Of a stretch of 64,000 nucleotides of DNA, positions 35,701 to 41,898 are shown piece after piece. Made by a program: the position numbers and the translations under genes. Below the pieces are notes generated by a model. It did not search any database. It had not been told where the DNA came from and was given only the letters and a program-made list of their open reading frames with translations. The stretch's first letter is position 1. Every line of letters begins with the position of its first letter. This DNA comes from an uncultured Clostridia bacterium (GTDB lineage: Bacteria > Bacillota > Clostridia > TANB77 > CAG-508): assembly GCA_934141605.1 (NCBI GenBank), contig CAKPCL010000001.1:90730-154729 (forward strand). Direction: 5' to 3'.

Positions 35701-37645
35701 TTTGTTCATCTAGTACGGGTTTATTTAGAATATGTGCCATGGCTCCTATTAGTTCTTGTGCAGAGTTTAAAATTAAGTCGGTGTCTGAATCTAATGTTAT
35801 TATATATTTAATATTTTGTAATGTTTTTATTGTTTCTTCTTTTTCTATATGTTCTTGAAGGGTATTTATTTTAAATGGATTTTTTTGTTGTAAAACATAT
35901 TCATTAAATTGATTTAATAGTCCTCTTTTTCTTTCCCAGCCTAGATAGCTATTTTCTTTTTCGTTCCATTTTCTTTCTCTGTATATAAAGCTAAAAATAG
36001 GGAAATTGTCATTTGGGTATTTTTTATTTAATTCATCTACTTGTTTTATTGCTTCTTGTATTACTTCTTCATCAAATGTTTCTTCTTTTAGATTGCTTTG
36101 TGAACAATCTCCTAATAATGTAAAATATAGATTTTCTGATTTATTTGCTAAATAATATGTTTCTAAATTTTTCATCATTTCTTGTACTTTTTCTTTATTT
36201 TTTATAATTGTTGGTATGACTACTATTGTAGAATTTTCTTTATCAATTCCGTTTGAGAAGTCTATTTTGGGTATTATTTTAGGTTTTACAATTTTGTTTA
36301 AAATATATTGTATTACTTTTATTACTACTTCGCTTGATGGTACTAAAAATAAAATAAAGCTTAATATTGAGATTTCTATTTTTTGTATTTTTAGGTTTAA
36401 AAAGTAACTTAAAATTATTGATATTAATATGCTCAAGGTACTTACTGCTAATATATATATTTTAGTTTTATTTTGTTCTGTTTCTTCTCTTCTTGTTGTG
36501 TATTCTAGTTTTGCATATAGTTCATTTATTCCTTTGTCTATTAGATAATATCCTATGTGTGATTTTTTATTTTTGCCTTCTTTGTTTAAATTTTCTTCTG
36601 CTAATTCTAGCATTTTTCTAGCTATATATATTTCTGATATTTTTGTTTTTTTACTTATTTCTTTTATTTTTCCTCTATAATAGTCTTTGGTTTTGTAGTC
36701 CATTTTGCTATATACTTCTGCTGGGTCTTTTTTTAGAATTTCTTCTACTCCATTTATTTTTTCAAATACTTCTAAAAAGTTTATTCTTTGTATTTCTTTA
36801 ATGCTTGTTATACTGTTTCCAATTAGTACTTTATTTACAGCTATTTCAAAATGTTCTTTTTTTATTACATCAGATACTGTCGTTCCTAATTTTTCTACTA
36901 CTTCTTCTAGAATATTTAAGTAGGCATTTGCTTTTTTTCCATATCTTTTTAAAATGTATGACATATATTCTATAAAAGGGTATTTCATGTCTTGAAATGC
37001 GTTTTTTTCTATCTTTTTTTGGTTATTTTTGTATATTATTTGGTTTTTGTCTTTTCCTTCTATTATTTTTTCTGTAATGCTTTCTGCTCTATATTTTTGT
37101 ACTTGGCTACTATATATTTTGTTACAGCACTCTGTTATATTTTCTATTATTGCAATTTGCAAAAATATTCCTATGTTCCATATTTCGTCCATGCTTAATG
37201 TTTTTTTGTTTTGGTAACTTTCTAGATAATCGCTTAAGTTGGCTTTTTCTATTTTGTTGTCTGAATATGCTACAATTTCAGATGCTAATACATATATTCT
37301 TGCAAATCCTTTGTATTCTCCATTTGCTATTCCTACAAAATTTATATATTTTTTTAATGGTAGTTCTTTTTGAATTTGTTTTACTGTTTCTTCTATTATA
37401 TAGAAATTGTCTAATAGCCACTCTCCTGCCGGGTGTATGTTTATTCCTAATTTTAAGTGTTCATTTAATATGTTGTATGTTTCTTTTATTGTTTTGAAGT
37501 TTTCTATTAGTCCTGGTATTGGGTATGTGTCTTTTTCTGTTTTTGATGTTGTGTTATGACTTGATGCTATTTTTTCTAGGTGTTTTTCTAGTTGTGCTTT
37601 TTCTAGCATTGTTCCTGTTATTTTTAGTTTTTTATTTGTTTTCAA
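32753..37645 (-). CDS. Cyclic beta-1,2-glucan synthase homologue, N-terminal part (GT84 glycosyltransferase plus TM region)
   Basis: 1630 aa; GT84 motifs ITLDSDTDL, GIMQPR, GKGIYD, SHDLLEG, RWIRGDWQ; multiple TM helices; TTG start with AGGAG RBS; overlaps the next ORF by 17 nt in a different frame. Confidence 0.6.
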   Translation of the reverse strand: MKTNKKLKITGTMLEKAQLEKHLEKIASSHNTTSKTEKDTYPIPGLIENFKTIKETYNILNEHLKLGINIHPAGEWLLDNFYIIEETVKQIQKELPLKKYINFVGIANGEYKGFARIYVLASEIVAYSDNKIEKANLSDYLESYQNKKTLSMDEIWNIGIFLQIAIIENITECCNKIYSSQVQKYRAESITEKIIEGKDKNQIIYKNNQKKIEKNAFQDMKYPFIEYMSYILKRYGKKANAYLNILEEVVEKLGTTVSDVIKKEHFEIAVNKVLIGNSITSIKEIQRINFLEVFEKINGVEEILKKDPAEVYSKMDYKTKDYYRGKIKEISKKTKISEIYIARKMLELAEENLNKEGKNKKSHIGYYLIDKGINELYAKLEYTTRREETEQNKTKIYILAVSTLSILISIILSYFLNLKIQKIEISILSFILFLVPSSEVVIKVIQYILNKIVKPKIIPKIDFSNGIDKENSTIVVIPTIIKNKEKVQEMMKNLETYYLANKSENLYFTLLGDCSQSNLKEETFDEEVIQEAIKQVDELNKKYPNDNFPIFSFIYRERKWNEKENSYLGWERKRGLLNQFNEYVLQQKNPFKINTLQEHIEKEETIKTLQNIKYIITLDSDTDLILNSAQELIGAMAHILNKPVLDEQKNIVVEGYGIMQPRVGVNLDISYKTLFTKIFAGAGGIDSYTNAISDIYQDNFKEGIFTGKGIYDLKVFSKVLKDRIPENTVLSHDLLEGCYLRCGLVSDVMLMDGYPTKYTSFMNRLSRWIRGDWQIIRWLGHKSELNLLSKYKIFDNLRRSLFEISILASLIYLNILRITFKINILGIDALLILIELTPYILEIFNYIIAKKEGEEKQKTFTPQISGLKGIFLRAIISLGCMPYKAYSALKAIGKTIYRLLVTHKNLLEWTTSEEAERLGKTDLMSYYKNMFINVIAGVLSVIIYVQYKSIIAIFLGLLWLITPAIMCYISKENEEKKAIEKLTQNEKEYILEIGRKTWNFFSKYLNQENNYLIPDNYQEDRKNKIVKRTSSTNIGLSMLAVISANDLGYISLEKTLEILENIIYTIDNLQKWNGHLYNWYNTETKEPLIPRYISTVDSGNFVGYLYVTKIWLEEKASNENHIIEIVDKIIDNTDFSQLYLKEQQIFSIGFNIEDNKLTNSYYDLLASEARQASLIAIAKKDVPVKHWNSLSRTLTTLGKYKGLVSWSGTSFEYLMPNINIPKYKGSLLDESCKFMIMSQMEYAKKLQIPWGISEAAFNLKDLHSNYQYKAFGIPWLGLKRGLADEMVVAPYGSVLAITDYPREVYKNLKRLEEYGMYGKYGFYESIDFTPERLEKGKQSAVVKTYMAHHQGLILLSINNLFNNNILQKRFMQNPKINAIKILLQERMPETAIITKENKEKVQKLKYIDYEDYIKDTYKKIDERLIRGNVISNENYLIAMNQKGEGVSIYKNKFINRFKGTEDYPQGIFFNIKNIKSKKIWSTNYKSNNKYQISFMPDKIEQEIVNDNIKTKIETIIAPDEPVEIRQVTLENTGNEDEILEITSYFEPVLSQKEQDYAHPAFNDLFLTFDFEHETNSIVVKRKKRGEQEEIYMCANLSTYDEVIGDLEYEIDKEKFIRKRKYSNTTNGKKL

Positions 37646-37646
37646 A

Positions 37647-37703
37647 AAATTTCCACTCCTTGCAAACTTTTTGTTTTTATTGTTTGCTAAAGAGTGGAAA
37701 TTT
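37647..37703 (-). terminator. Hairpin (12-bp perfect stem) downstream of the small membrane-protein gene, overlapping the RBS of the glucan synthase
   Basis: aaatttccactc ... gagtggaaattt followed by a T-run on the minus strand. Confidence 0.4.
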
Positions 37704-37736
37704 ATTCATTTTTTAAAATTTTTAAAGAGGTCACAA

Positions 37737-37931
37737 TTAGTGGCCTCTTTTTTTGTTGAAGTTTTCTTTTAGATAGTTGTAAGCTCTTTGGGTAAGAGCC
37801 GTTCCCATTGCAGTAAATAATACTGTAAACCAAAGTTGGTCATGTTTGACAATTGCAAGAATTATCATTAATATGCCAAATACCATTAATCCTACTCCAA
37901 CCATTAAAGTTTCCATCTTGTCTTTTCTCAT
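37737..37931 (-). CDS. Small membrane protein (64 aa)
   Basis: One or two TM helices; strong RBS aaaaggag; preceded by a near-consensus promoter. Confidence 0.5.
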   Translation of the reverse strand: MRKDKMETLMVGVGLMVFGILMIILAIVKHDQLWFTVLFTAMGTALTQRAYNYLKENFNKKRGH

Positions 37932-37951
37932 AATTGTCTTCTCCTTTTATA

Positions 37952-38019
37952 TTGGCTATAATCTAGCCAGTTAATGTAGTAATTACTTATATTATAGCAC
38001 ATTTAAGTAAAAAATGCAA
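37952..38019 (-). promoter_or_regulatory. Promoter (TTGCAT-17-TATAAT) plus palindromic operator TTGGCTAtaatcTAGCCAg, copy 1
   Basis: -35 at 38014-38019 and -10 at 37991-37996 (minus strand); palindrome 37952-37970 in the 5'UTR; 38-bp block identical to copy 2. Confidence 0.55.
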
Positions 38020-38061
38020 AATCTTCATAATATTATTATATAGTTATGAAAAAAGCTCGTA

Positions 38062-38325
38062 TCAACGAGCTTTTTCGGAAAGTCTTTTTTTGTATAAGTA
38101 TAGGCTTTCGTTCATTGTGTCATCAAGCAGGATTACTCCAGCAACCATGCCTATGATTCCACCGGTTTCTTTCAGCAACCATATCCAGTAGATTTCACTG
38201 AGTTCAAATAGTGAATTTTTAAAAAGCAGAAATGAATTTATGATTACCACTACTGCTACAATGCACCGGATTATACGGCTGAATTGCCATCTCTTTAAAA
38301 GTTTTTTTCTTTCTGTCTTTATCAT
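38062..38325 (-). CDS. Small membrane protein (87 aa)
   Basis: Two TM helices; same promoter/operator module as its neighbour. Confidence 0.5.
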   Translation of the reverse strand: MIKTERKKLLKRWQFSRIIRCIVAVVVIINSFLLFKNSLFELSEIYWIWLLKETGGIIGMVAGVILLDDTMNESLYLYKKRLSEKAR

Positions 38326-38347
38326 ATTGTTTTTCTCCTTTTCTTTT

Positions 38348-38415
38348 TTGGCTATAACTAGCCAATTTTTATTAGTAGCTACTTATATTATAGCACATTT
38401 AAGTAAAAAATGCAA
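38348..38415 (-). promoter_or_regulatory. Promoter plus palindromic operator TTGGCTAtaacTAGCCAA, copy 2
   Basis: Perfect 7-bp half-sites 38348-38365; -10 at 38387-38392 and -35 at 38410-38415 on the minus strand. Confidence 0.55.
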
Positions 38416-38502
38416 AAATTTGAAAATAATGCTATATAATATTGATATCCAAAAACAAATATAGTAAAATACATATATAATATAAACGAAAGAGAGATAC
38501 TA

Positions 38503-39609
38503 ATGAAATATACAAATGATTTTGAAACTTTGGGATTACCAGAAAATTTTAAATTTGGAATAGAATTAGAAGCCAACAATGTAAAAACAACTGGGGAAAA
38601 TGGTTTATATACAGGAAAAAGTGCAGAATTTATAAATCAGAAAAATTGGCACATGGCTACAATAAGTGAAGAAGAACTTGTCCTTCAAGGAGGAGCTGAA
38701 TTAGTTTCCCCTATATTAAGAGATACACCAAGTGATTGGGAAAGTATTTCTTCTATTTGTGAACATATGAAAAAATTTCCTGGTAATAAAGGAGATAAGG
38801 TTATTGCAGATAGTAAATGTGGTCTACATATACATTTTGATGCAGATTGTTTGGCTAAAAATCCTGACAAAATGAGAAATTTTCTAAAATTGTATGCTGA
38901 ATCTGAAGAATTATTATATAAAATGTGTAATGATAAAAATGACCCAATAAGAAAATATGCCATAAATAAGAGTTCTAAAGGCTTGGCTATTATTTCTTCA
39001 ATATTGTTAAACGGAGTGGCTGCTCCTACTGGCAAAAAGATATTGAAACAAATTGAAAATGGTACTTTAAAAGTTTCATATAAAAAATTTGGAAAATTAA
39101 AAATGCTTATAGGTGAGCATAAATTAGACGCGCGTCGCTATTCAGGTCTTAATTTAACTAATATTGGTAATAGCAAAAAGAATACAATTGAATTTAGAAT
39201 GGCAAATGGAACATTAAATCCTGAAGTTATAAAGCAAAATGTATTTTTATATTCATCTTTAATAAATACTGCTATTAATATTACTGAAAAACCAGAACTA
39301 TACAAAGATAAATTATCAGAATTTTATAAAACAGATGTTAGTGAAAAAGAAAAAGCTGAAAATTTTCTAAATCTTATTATGGAAAATCCAGATGATAGAA
39401 AAATTTATATGGATAGATGGGACTCAGTAAAAGATGCTCCTGTTTTTCAAGAAAATTATAAAAAAGGTTTTGCAAAGAATAGATTTAACAGGGAACAATT
39501 TAAGAAAATAGCAATGAGAACCCCTGCTGATGTAGTTCGTTCAACATATTCTTATATTAATGAAATGATTAAGACAAACTATAAAGGAGATGTTGGTTAT
39601 GCTAGATGA
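38503..39609 (+). CDS. Putative amidoligase / GCS2-like carboxylate-amine ligase (glutamine-synthetase superfamily)
   Basis: N-terminal FGIELEAN (G.E.E strand), CGLHIHFD (H.H motif), EFRMANGT; 368 aa; fits the PF12224-type putative amidoligases. Confidence 0.5.
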   Translation: MKYTNDFETLGLPENFKFGIELEANNVKTTGENGLYTGKSAEFINQKNWHMATISEEELVLQGGAELVSPILRDTPSDWESISSICEHMKKFPGNKGDKVIADSKCGLHIHFDADCLAKNPDKMRNFLKLYAESEELLYKMCNDKNDPIRKYAINKSSKGLAIISSILLNGVAAPTGKKILKQIENGTLKVSYKKFGKLKMLIGEHKLDARRYSGLNLTNIGNSKKNTIEFRMANGTLNPEVIKQNVFLYSSLINTAINITEKPELYKDKLSEFYKTDVSEKEKAENFLNLIMENPDDRKIYMDRWDSVKDAPVFQENYKKGFAKNRFNREQFKKIAMRTPADVVRSTYSYINEMIKTNYKGDVGYAR

Positions 39610-40045
39610 AATATATAAAAATTCCTTTAAAGAGGTTTATGATATTTTAGAAAATACTGAAGATGAATTAGTATCAAAGATTCCAACTAAGTTTATGAAT
39701 TTTTTAAAAGAAAATATGAATCCTAACTATAAAACTAATATTAACAAAGATGAAGAACTAGATAAACAACATTTGTTAAAAGAGACAGAAGCTATTTTAT
39801 CTTTAATTTATAGAAGCTATTGGGCAACAGAAGAAGAGAAAAAAGAATTTTCTCAAAAAGATAAACAGGAGCTTATCGAAAAAGAAGAAAAGCGTAAAGA
39901 ACAGTATCCAGTTAATGATATTTATGAAGTTTTTGCTAAAAGAAAAAATATAAATAACATTACTGTTGATAATAATTTAATGGTAATAAAAAAGGAGAGT
40001 TTTATTAAAAGGATTTTCAATAAAATTTTAAGTATCTTTAGGTAA
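39599..40045 (+). CDS. Hypothetical protein, translationally coupled to the ligase gene
   Basis: ATG at 39599 9 nt after RBS aaaggag, overlapping the ligase stop by 11 nt; 148 aa, charged and predicted helical. Confidence 0.45.
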   Translation: MLDEIYKNSFKEVYDILENTEDELVSKIPTKFMNFLKENMNPNYKTNINKDEELDKQHLLKETEAILSLIYRSYWATEEEKKEFSQKDKQELIEKEEKRKEQYPVNDIYEVFAKRKNINNITVDNNLMVIKKESFIKRIFNKILSIFR

Positions 40046-40152
40046 AAATATGTTAAAAATTTTTAACATATTTTTTTGTCATTTTTCGACTTTTTTCATA
40101 TTATAGTATTAAGTAAGTGACTTACTTATAAAAAAGAAAGGAAGTAGTTTTT

Positions 40153-40593
40153 ATGGAAATGGAAGAAAAGAAACCAGGTTGTCCAATATTAGATATTGAT
40201 GGTCTTGTATCAGGTGGAAAACAATTTGATTTAGACATTACTTTACCAGAAGATAACAGAGATGTTATATATGGAGTTATTAAAGATTGCTTTAAAGAGC
40301 CTATATGTGATGCTGTTGTTAAATTAACTGAAATTGCTTATGATTGTGGCAAAGAAGTTAGAAAACCTATCGGCCATACTTTTACAGATAAAGAAGGGGA
40401 ATTTGTATTCGGTCCTCTTTGTCCTGACAGACATTATGCTATTCAAATTTGGGCAAATGCAACTAAGAAAATAAAAATATGTGCTAAATGTCATCATGAA
40501 GGAAAATGCTTAAAAGGTGAAAAAAATGATAAATGTGATTGCTTTATAGATGATAAAAAGCCTTGTCATAAAGAAGAAAATTGTGATTGTTAA
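40153..40593 (+). CDS. Cys/His-rich protein with carboxypeptidase-regulatory-like (prealbumin/transthyretin-fold) domain
   Basis: VIYGVIKD...AVVKL...TDKEGEFVFGPL...YAIQIW pattern of a CarboxypepD_reg/Cna-B-like beta-sandwich; the C-terminal 50 aa contain 9 Cys and 3 His (KICAKCHHEGKC...KCDCF...PCHKEENCDC). Confidence 0.5.
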   Translation: MEMEEKKPGCPILDIDGLVSGGKQFDLDITLPEDNRDVIYGVIKDCFKEPICDAVVKLTEIAYDCGKEVRKPIGHTFTDKEGEFVFGPLCPDRHYAIQIWANATKKIKICAKCHHEGKCLKGEKNDKCDCFIDDKKPCHKEENCDC

Positions 40594-40636
40594 TTACATT
40601 ATTATGTAAAAACCTTAAGAAGTTGATAAAAAGATA

Positions 40637-40682
40637 AATCTCTTTTTATCAACTTCTTTTTAAATTATTCCTAATTTTTTTA
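40637..40682 (+). terminator. Strong rho-independent terminator
   Basis: 17-bp perfect stem aagaagttgataaaaag / ctttttatcaacttctt with an 8-nt loop and T-run. Confidence 0.75.
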
Positions 40683-40805
40683 CGAATTGTTTTCCTTTTT
40701 TAATCATTTTATTTTTATTCATCATGTTTGTGTCATTATACATCATTATTAATCCTGTTGTAATTAGTCCGCCTACTAATAATCCTTTTGCAAATTTCAT
40801 ATTTA

Positions 40806-41216
40806 TCAATCCTTTCTATATTGCCTTAGTTCTTTTTTATTTTGTCCTTTTTTTGTCTTTTTATTCTGTTTTATAATGGTATATATTTCATGTATGGCAA
40901 TTATTGCTAGAAAAATTCCAAAATATTTTCTTAATTCGTTTACATTTGTATGAACTGATAAATTTGCTCCTATTATTGCTCCTAATATTCCAAATATTGA
41001 TATTATTGTTGCTAATTTTAGGTCTATATTTTTATTTTTTAGGTTTACTATTATTGCCACAATTGAAGTTGGTATAAAAAATATTAAATTTGTTGCTTGT
41101 GCTATATGTTGCTCTAGTCCACTCATAAATGTTAGTAAAAATATTAATATTGTTCCTCCTCCCATTCCTGTTCCACTTACAATTCCAGAAATAAGTCCTA
41201 TAATAATTTCTTTCAT
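40806..41216 (-). CDS. TauE/SafE (DUF81) family half-size membrane transporter protein
   Basis: GLISGIVSGTGMGGGTILI motif and 4 TM helices. Confidence 0.6.
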   Translation of the reverse strand: MKEIIIGLISGIVSGTGMGGGTILIFLLTFMSGLEQHIAQATNLIFFIPTSIVAIIVNLKNKNIDLKLATIISIFGILGAIIGANLSVHTNVNELRKYFGIFLAIIAIHEIYTIIKQNKKTKKGQNKKELRQYRKD

Positions 41217-41537: not shown

Positions 41538-41898
41538 TTATTTAAGTATCATTCTTAGTGATATATAAATTAAGAATATTGTAAATAATATTTTTAGTAT
41601 TTTTTCTGGTAATTTTTTTAAGAGTTTTGCGCCTATATATCCGCCAATAGCTCCGCCTATACCGCAGAGTATTGATACTTTCCAATTTATAAAATTTCCC
41701 TTATAGTAGAAGAAACTGCTTGTTAATACCATTGGCAATATGCAAAATATAGATGTTCCTCTTGCTTTTTGTGAGTCTAAATTTAATAAGTACATAAATG
41801 CTGGAACTAATATAAGTCCTCCTCCTGTAGAAAAAAATCCGACTTATAAATCCAGCTGATAATCCTATTATTATTTGTTTAATATATTTTTTTAACAT
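41538..41898 (-). pseudogene. TauE/SafE family half-size protein interrupted by a +1 frameshift
   Basis: Start MLKKYIKQIIIGLSAGFIS then a frame change; the alternative frame continues GFFSTGGGLILVPAFMYLL... to the stop at 41538; the shift maps next to the A7 tract at 41831-41837. Confidence 0.5.

Follow-up and report, generated by a model that had tools for sequence, protein, structure and literature searches.

We analyzed a 64,000-nucleotide stretch of DNA (hereafter the window) from an uncultured Clostridia bacterium (contig CAKPCL010000001.1 of assembly GCA_934141605.1), and consider here three neighboring genes within it: one for a putative amidoligase of 368 amino acids (aa), a second open reading frame (ORF2) whose start overlaps the end of the first gene, and one for a 146-aa Cys-rich protein. 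A sequence-only reading of the region had placed the three genes in one operon and proposed a dedicated system in which a ligase acts on a Cys-rich substrate under palindromic operators. Comparison with related loci leads us to favor, tentatively, a different arrangement: two independent transcription units that lie side by side rather than one three-gene system, the first a cassette of amidoligase and ORF2 and the second the Cys-rich gene. The features of the two units are as follows.

38442-40082: unit 1, the amidoligase cassette (promoter, enzyme, ORF2, terminator)
38442-38470, plus strand: sigma-A-type promoter of the cassette (TTGATA, 17-nucleotide spacer, TAAAAT) within the box TAGTAAAAT, from a consensus scan
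38503-39609, plus strand: amidoligase ORF, 368 aa
39599-40045, plus strand: ORF2, 148 aa, predicted all-helical, coupled to the amidoligase
40044-40082, plus strand: palindrome 1, a 32-nucleotide perfect palindrome (40044-40075), then a run of seven T (T7)
40078-40658: unit 2, the Cys-rich gene with its own promoter, 5' hairpin and terminator
40078-40105, plus strand: promoter of the Cys-rich gene (GTC, 16 nucleotides, CATATTATA), like those of the mother-cell sigma factors (K/E)
40110-40128, plus strand: palindrome 2, exact 9+1+9, a weak stem-loop in the 5' untranslated region of the Cys-rich gene
40153-40593, plus strand: Cys-rich gene, 146 aa, a backbone gene outside the cassette
40617-40658, no strand assigned: bidirectional terminator with an 18-bp stem, common to the Cys-rich gene and a convergent 46-49-aa ORF

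The amidoligase-ORF2 pair recurs apart from the Cys-rich gene

In a scan that took one genome for each GTDB species, 45 proteins closely related to the amidoligase turned up, at 47-76% identity and exclusively in uncultured gut Clostridia. When these loci were searched with all window proteins (tblastn), ORF2 was found directly downstream of the amidoligase in 43 of the 45, and the two loci that lack ORF2 both hold 3'-truncated amidoligase remnants. The same search found the Cys-rich gene near the pair at none of the 45 loci, nor did it find there the GH94, TauE, RarA or RuvA genes that flank the two units in the window. Around 25 distinct flanking contexts surround the pair at the related loci, composed mostly of genes for housekeeping proteins (gyrase, Hsp70, RNA polymerase, tRNA synthetases), and no Pfam family is represented by more than three of 97 non-redundant flanking proteins, which argues that the pair has no third partner.

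The Cys-rich gene, for its part, recurs apart from the pair. Its family gives more than 1,840 matches against 344 for the amidoligase. Four other lineages have a window-like slot, with the Cys-rich gene, a convergent 46-57-aa ORF, TauE, RarA and RuvA, that holds no amidoligase pair; in a fifth (L252) the Cys-rich gene sits in a different context, likewise without the pair nearby; and the gene on the left side of the Cys-rich gene differs between lineages. All three genes stand together only where the proteins of a contig share 95-100% identity with those of the window, that is, within its own species-level lineage, and at 78% ORF2 identity the amidoligase-ORF2 pair is already located elsewhere. 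Because co-conservation, which had been set beforehand as the refuting test, was not found, the proposal of a dedicated ligase, substrate and operator system fails. The proposal of a single operon fares no better, given the terminator-like hairpin that follows the ORF2 stop and the separate promoter of the Cys-rich gene. The cassette lies next to the Cys-rich gene by chance, and a false lead is thereby removed: the gene for the Cys-rich protein is independent, broadly conserved and probably associated with spores.

Organization of the cassette

The cassette is a self-contained accessory unit with its own promoter and terminator. In about 20 loci whose flanks are unrelated, the promoter box TAGTAAAAT stands some 55-60 nucleotides before the amidoligase ATG, and a variant of it, TGATATAAT, is found in about 10 further loci. 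Translational coupling of the two genes through an 11-nucleotide overlap, as claimed by the sequence-only reading, is real: the ORF2 ATG at 39599 lies within the amidoligase frame, which ends with a TGA at 39607-39609, it has an AAGGAG 9 nucleotides upstream, and an overlap of the same length is the commonest arrangement across related loci. A further in-frame ATG, upstream at 39590, is not suitably spaced from a ribosome-binding site, and in homologues the second ATG is the start.

Palindrome 1 follows immediately on the ORF2 stop; with its T7 run it has a folding free energy (dG) of -9.9 kcal/mol (z = -4.8), and at other loci hairpin-plus-T-run terminators of unrelated sequence occupy the position after the ORF2 stop. 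On account of the fold, the T7 run and this shared position, palindrome 1 is best read as an intrinsic terminator that closes the cassette and not as an operator; it is perfect, as had been claimed, but measures 32 nucleotides rather than 28 bp. From locus to locus, the amidoligase and ORF2 rise and fall together in their identity to the window proteins (Spearman 0.82), which is what joint inheritance of the two as a unit would produce.

The enzyme

The assignment of the 368-aa protein to the putative amidoligases holds. It matches the Pfam family Amidoligase_2 (PF12224) with 65 bits (cutoff 22, E=1.2e-17) and phrog_2443, 'amidoligase enzyme', with E=7.5e-18, and PF12224 is present in all 120 homologues among the matches listed. 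The G.E.E strand and H.H motif that had been picked out in the protein are likewise borne out, since FGIELEA and CGLHIHFD are invariant in close homologues. Seven residues are invariant in 15 homologues (E21, E23, E66, H109, H111, E230 and R232), six of which fall in the catalytic motifs: E21 and E23 in FGIELEA, H109 and H111 in CGLHIHFD, and E230 and R232 in EFRM. Used as seeds, FGIELEA and CGLHIHFD retrieved relatives of about 25% identity in Bacteroidota, Verrucomicrobiota and viral contigs. The metal-, ATP- and carboxylate-binding residues of ligases with the glutamine synthetase (GS) fold are conserved. The enzyme is presumably an active ATP-dependent carboxylate-amine ligase that joins an amine or amino acid to a carboxylate.

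Residues ~277-368 form a clade-specific C-terminal extension of about 90 aa; distant relatives align over residues ~12-280 only, and nothing equivalent to the extension is present in distant amidoligases without ORF2. A profile search of PDB sequences found no solved relative of the amidoligase, Pfam gave no Pup_ligase match, and the only NCBIfam match was to YbdK, at 13.5 bits against a cutoff of 176 (E=0.035). There is no close relative in IMG/VR or among the INPHARED phages, and the amidoligases found on plasmids are distant ones (about 30% identity) on the tcp plasmids of C. perfringens. PADLOC matched neither the amidoligase nor ORF2 nor the Cys-rich protein. To our knowledge, Amidoligase_2 proteins are widespread in phages, plasmids and chromosomes, and we know of no member with a defined substrate.

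We note that about 100 Clostridium plasmids, mostly of the tcp type, encode a distant Amidoligase_2 protein (about 30% identity). On the C. perfringens plasmid pNetB-NE10 (NC_019688.1; L259 5290-6696) the gene follows just after tcpH, beside dcm and a DUF4417 gene, and has no neighbor of the ORF2 family.

We also note that in four independent metagenome-assembled genomes (MAGs) a one-nucleotide insertion interrupts the amidoligase frame: an extra C, which gives rise to a rare CGG codon. The insertions fall at amidoligase codons ~93-96 (~2553-2570 in L037, ~6269-6285 in L045, ~6285-6295 in L038 and ~2699-2710 in L042; the equivalent in the window is ~38780-38795), in the context CCT-C-GG in two MAGs and AAA-C-GG in the other two, and a +1 reading restores the full protein. 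The inserted C could be an artefact of assembly, could mark a site at which pseudogenes arise repeatedly, or could reflect programmed +1 frameshifting where a rare codon is decoded slowly.

The Cys-rich gene

The promoter of the Cys-rich gene lies between the two palindromes (40078-40105), where the sequence-only reading had expected one. Its pattern, G[T/A]C-N16-CATAnnATA, is common to five of six distinct and otherwise unalignable regions upstream of Cys-rich genes. Mother-cell promoters of C. difficile have a CATA-type -10 element common to sigma-E and sigma-K, with an AC at -35 in the case of sigma-K (PMC3789822). The shared pattern agrees with this description. The second palindrome, which had been placed at 40110-40128, is exact; its folding is weak (dG -5.7, z -0.6), and in three other genomes hairpins of different sequence stand at the same position, which suggests that it is an mRNA 5' stem-loop rather than an operator. 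What had been proposed as dedicated palindromic operators are thus sequences that are not conserved, with only the potential to form a hairpin retained at equivalent positions.

Homologues of the 146-aa protein share a core of about 130 aa, with a Cys/His cluster, in which C10, C46, C90, C110, C113, C119, C128, H75 and H115 are invariant and C130 nearly so, followed by a hypervariable, repetitive, low-complexity tail of K, D, E, C and H whose length ranges from about 10 to 120 aa even between close relatives. The window protein has 13 Cys overall, and its tail has the three His that had been counted, but eight Cys and not nine. The carboxypeptidase-regulatory-like beta-sandwich proposed for the core is plausible: matches to transthyretin-like beta-sandwich profiles recur in 25 of 25 homologues (NOMO1-like in 25/25, CarboxypepD_reg in 20/25), but all are below threshold, the best at 17.4 bits where the threshold is 27. 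A profile search against PDB sequences returned NOMO2 only (E=0.075).

On the strength of the mother-cell-sigma-like promoter, the 5' hairpin and the hypervariable tail, the Cys-rich protein is probably a spore coat or outer-layer protein, and the presence of SipL and YunB close by in a sister species indicates that these organisms are likely spore formers. It has no detectable homology to named coat proteins in Pfam or NCBIfam. Certain details nevertheless sit poorly with a role in sporulation: the window promoter has TC, not the canonical AC, at -35; the same site also reads as a sigma-A-like promoter in a consensus scan (TTGTCA-17-TATTAT); and the 5' hairpins are individually weak.

The terminator at the end of the Cys-rich gene exists as described, save that its stem is of 18 bp and not 17. 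We note that on the other side of it lies a convergent 46-49-aa predicted membrane ORF (40660-40809, minus strand), which is found beside the Cys-rich gene in all syntenic relatives, with 59-91% identity where compared.

A variable segment in a conserved backbone

The cassette occupies part of a segment that differs between close relatives. In blastn comparisons with the sister-species loci L087-L089, identity is about 86% up to 37712 and again from 40136, and in place of the intervening segment these loci hold an unrelated gene for a 275-281-aa protein.

37713-40135, no strand assigned: variable segment between conserved backbone flanks, with two small minus-strand membrane ORFs and the amidoligase cassette
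37737-37931, minus strand: predicted membrane ORF, 64 aa, within the variable segment
38062-38325, minus strand: predicted membrane ORF, 87 aa, within the variable segment

Neither of the small ORFs has a tblastn match in the 45 related amidoligase loci; a 64-65-aa ORF is also called in contigs of the same species. The idea that the two are remnants of the 275-331-aa gene that fills the slot in relatives was rejected, as there is no similarity.

Elsewhere along the backbone, a hairpin-like element at 37639-37708 (minus strand), in the leader of a 1,630-aa GH94-type gene, gives a sub-threshold Rfam match to a model of an animal miRNA (35 bits, where the gathering score is 86) and is almost certainly a chance AT-rich stem-loop; the Rfam search over 37600-40900 found no credible family. 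Beyond the Cys-rich gene, a TauE-family membrane protein is divided between two minus-strand ORFs (40806-41216 and 41538-41795) with a 65-aa ORF between them, and both TauE ORFs are present in relatives too. In two related lineages, two or three ORFs are called in place of a single RarA/MgsA gene downstream of the Cys-rich gene (L248 5475-6754, L250 6208-7513), and these are either pseudogenes or assembly frameshifts.

ORF2 belongs to a large family found beside many different genes

ORF2 has no match in Pfam, NCBIfam, PHROG or PADLOC, no close relative in IMG/VR or among INPHARED phages, and no match among PLSDB plasmids. An exhaustive profile search with it nevertheless returned 2,921 clusters at 50% identity with E<=1e-3, and 893 with E<=1e-10, nearly all of proteins of about 150 aa; none of 124 representatives has a credible Pfam domain. 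A structure model of ORF2 (AF2) built on a deeper alignment is all-helical with a predicted local distance difference test score (pLDDT) of 88.9, where a first alignment of 25 close homologues had given a poor model (pLDDT 61); the better model has no fold match. Throughout the family, the last 24 or so residues form a cationic amphipathic helix, with a mean best hydrophobic moment of 0.75 compared with 0.45 for shuffled sequences (99% of members lie above their own shuffled mean) and a mean net charge of +5 (at least +3 in 96% of members). E12 is nearly invariant across the family, and the C-termini are variable (IFR, IFKK, ILKNKSQFF and others). What is new here is a very large, unnamed family in low-GC gut Clostridia that matches no Pfam family or known fold.

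The genes that accompany ORF2-family members were surveyed in a metagenome scan of 80 loci, seeded by a single peptide pattern from a divergent ORF2 subfamily. Only about 12 of the 80 have an amidoligase of the window type. In the remainder the gene immediately before the ORF2-family gene, which often overlaps with it, is of a quite different kind. It may encode a repeat protein (500-1,350 aa, in some cases with an HD domain), a DUF4116 repeat protein, an AAA_5 ATPase, an HExxH protein, a protein of 129 aa, or an Amidoligase_2 protein of 529 aa with N-terminal repeats; a 369-aa Amidoligase_2 protein is also among the products of such upstream genes in the 80 loci. A further partner is a 313-aa protein without an enzymatic domain, and at some loci the order is reversed, with the ORF2-family gene upstream of one for a 568-aa amidoligase-like protein or for a Transglut_core protein. 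A short helix and then an acidic tail recur at the C-termini of these clients. Searches with three other clients against PDB sequences (phmmer) were uninformative, and PADLOC gave marginal matches only.

We note that the commonest alternative client belongs to an unannotated family of 500-1,350-aa proteins (L166 798-4850, L168 2058-4400, L181 938-4885) with N-terminal repeats of about 30 residues, an optional HD domain and a conserved C-terminal domain that has no match in Pfam or the PDB. At other loci (L212 5001-8177) an ORF2-domain gene is first in an operon with genes for a protein of 195 aa and a transglutaminase-like protein of 714 aa, and at one (L218 1397-2857) the ORF2 domain is fused, in a 486-aa protein, C-terminal to a helical region of about 340 aa.

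Possible roles of ORF2

Partners of this one family range from ligases and hydrolases to an ATPase and repeat proteins that are not enzymes, which makes it unlikely that ORF2 is a dedicated substrate of the amidoligase. We would tentatively propose that ORF2 is a generic partner subunit with a docking or regulatory role. In such a scheme the conserved N-terminal helical domain of ORF2 would dock on the clade-specific C-terminal extension of the protein encoded upstream, and the cationic amphipathic C-terminal helix would tether or regulate this client, most likely on the inner side of the membrane, while the GS-fold enzyme would use ATP to ligate an amine or amino acid to a carboxylate. Members of the ORF2 family would serve unrelated clients in other genomes.

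A broader form of this proposal is that the ORF2 family supplies a universal plug-in partner for unrelated enzymes (amidoligase, HD, HExxH, transglutaminase-like and AAA proteins), either as a promiscuous antitoxin or immunity protein or as a membrane-tethering adaptor that recognizes a short helix at the client C-terminus. We think this unlikely; if it is true, the cassette would be the first case of a GS-fold amidoligase acting as a partner-controlled effector. The ORF2 family is large and unannotated, and it is found in abundant human-gut Clostridia, so that confirmation of such a role would define a new adaptor or neutralizer module.

Several considerations count against the account that we prefer. 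The census of partners is biased by the single peptide pattern that seeded the metagenome scan, and the shared helix at the client C-termini is not significant (hhalign E 0.03-0.8). The cationic amphipathic helix of ORF2 could instead bind nucleic acid or be membrane-toxic. The variable contexts of the cassette among distant species may partly reflect ordinary loss of synteny and not mobility, and relatives in which this locus holds no cassette might have one at another place in the genome.

A different possibility is that the cassette is a toxin-antitoxin (TA)-like or conflict module, in which the amidoligase would be a harmful effector that ligates an amine onto an essential cellular carboxylate and ORF2 a promiscuous neutralizer of many effectors. 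A compact, translationally coupled two-gene cassette with its own promoter and terminator has the form of such a module, its presence differs between backbones that are 86% identical, and distant Amidoligase_2 genes do occur on prophages and conjugative plasmids, but PADLOC gave nothing for either cassette protein (and only marginal matches for other clients), close relatives are missing from IMG/VR, INPHARED phages and PLSDB plasmids, and the neighbors are housekeeping genes with no recurring integrase or transposase. The swapping of partners across the ORF2 family (HD proteins, peptidases, an AAA ATPase) also fits a promiscuous neutralizer, yet some of the clients, repeat proteins of up to 1,350 aa, are not enzymes, and a client-ORF2 fusion exists. 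An intact amidoligase never stands without ORF2, both ORF2-less loci having a truncated one, and five loci with a disrupted amidoligase frame keep an intact ORF2; however, four of these 'disrupted' frames share the odd C insertion and may not be pseudogenes, and both proteins are strongly conserved across species. On balance we consider a TA-like module unlikely.

It is less likely still that ORF2 is the target of the enzyme, such that the amidoligase would covalently modify a conserved carboxylate of ORF2 and other partners (peptidases, transglutaminase-like enzymes, AAA proteins) would act on ORF2 paralogues, in the manner of protein tagging or of a type-VII TA-like system whose enzyme keeps a small membrane-active protein in check. 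The strict pairing and coupling of the two genes would fit this, E12 is nearly invariant, several of the partners make or break amide bonds or unfold proteins (Amidoligase_2, HExxH, Transglut_core, AAA_5), and the cationic amphipathic tail could be membrane-active. The DUF4116 repeat protein and the 129-aa and 313-aa partners, which are without an enzymatic domain, cannot modify anything, however, and the ORF2 C-terminus is variable and basic, with no conserved terminal residue of the Pup or ubiquitin kind. In addition, loci with a disrupted amidoligase keep ORF2 intact, which is unexpected if unmodified ORF2 is toxic.

We regard as improbable the idea of an ordinary metabolic ligase for small molecules, of the gamma-glutamyl-amine or glutamate-cysteine type, with ORF2 as a co-transcribed bystander. 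The GS-fold enzymes YbdK and GCS2 do act on small molecules, and a constitutive promoter in housekeeping chromosomal contexts would suit such an enzyme, but the NCBIfam match to YbdK that might point this way is weak and far below its cutoff, no gene for a transporter or pathway is co-conserved among the flanking proteins, and the 11-nucleotide overlap, co-divergence and strict pairing tie ORF2 functionally to the enzyme. Scarcely credible, lastly, is the model of the sequence-only reading, in which palindromic operators control either a ligase that acts on the Cys-rich tail of the third protein, by ligation or modification, or a trio with a role in metal handling. The three genes do lie together here and in other strains of the species, and the Cys/His-rich tail is real, but the Cys-rich gene is linked to the pair at 0 of 45 amidoligase loci, five Cys-rich loci have no cassette nearby, a terminator and a separate promoter part the units, the Cys-rich family (1,840 matches) greatly exceeds the amidoligase clade (344) in size, and a tail hypervariable in length and sequence would make a poor conserved substrate.

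Comparison with known systems

The window enzyme shares its ligase domain, by a significant match, with Amidoligase_2/phrog_2443, a family whose function is still only predicted. Such genes typically have a gene for an amidotransferase-like thiol peptidase as a neighbor or, in Firmicutes, an AIG2/gamma-glutamyl cyclotransferase (GGCT) gene. In prophages of C. clostridioforme, phrog_2443 is found next to a GGCT gene (PMC11318856). At window-type loci, by contrast, no GGCT, AIG2 or amidotransferase neighbor is found in the annotated contexts, and none recurs among the 97 flanking proteins. The window gene differs from its phage and prophage counterparts also in being chromosomal, with no close relative in viral or plasmid collections, in its additional C-terminal extension of about 90 aa, and in its new obligate partner family.

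Other GS-superfamily ligases offer partial parallels. The PafA/Dop-Pup system combines a GS-fold ligase, a small helical or disordered tag and an AAA ATPase. Like it, the window has a carboxylate-amine ligase of the GS superfamily encoded beside a small helical protein, and AAA ATPases are among the partners of ORF2 paralogues. However, ORF2 lacks the conserved C-terminal Gly-Gly-Gln/Glu and ends in a variable basic amphipathic helix, so that it has no conserved ligatable terminal residue of the sort found in a Pup-like tag; the enzyme does not match Pup_ligase in Pfam, and no proteasome genes were seen. With YbdK/GCS2 (TIGR02050) the enzyme shares the fold superfamily and conserved motifs of the E-x-E, H-x-H and E-x-R type, though its score of 13.5 bits is well short of that family's cutoff of 176.

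Judged against type II TA systems, the cassette is an autonomous bicistron whose presence differs between close backbones, yet no association with mobile elements was found, and its proteins match no toxin, antitoxin or defense family in PADLOC, Pfam or NCBIfam. The Panacea (PanA) domains are promiscuous antitoxin domains that pair with many unrelated toxins. One small ORF2 family is likewise paired with many unrelated neighbors in two-gene units; the likeness is one of gene pairing. ORF2 has no relationship in sequence or fold to known antitoxins, and differs further in that ORF2 clients include large repeat proteins and that fusions occur.

As for the second unit, CdeC and CdeM are Cys-rich proteins of the spore coat and exosporium of C. 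difficile. The 146-aa protein resembles them in being small and Cys-rich, without a signal peptide, with a variable low-complexity tail and a mother-cell-sigma-like promoter, and it differs in its putative transthyretin-like beta-sandwich core and in having no detectable homology to named coat proteins in Pfam or NCBIfam.

Set beside these systems, the cassette is a new neighborhood variant of an uncharacterized amidoligase family, one whose coupled partner comes from a large, unnamed family of helical proteins. An amidoligase clade with an obligate and tightly coupled partner would provide a concrete biochemical handle on Amidoligase_2.

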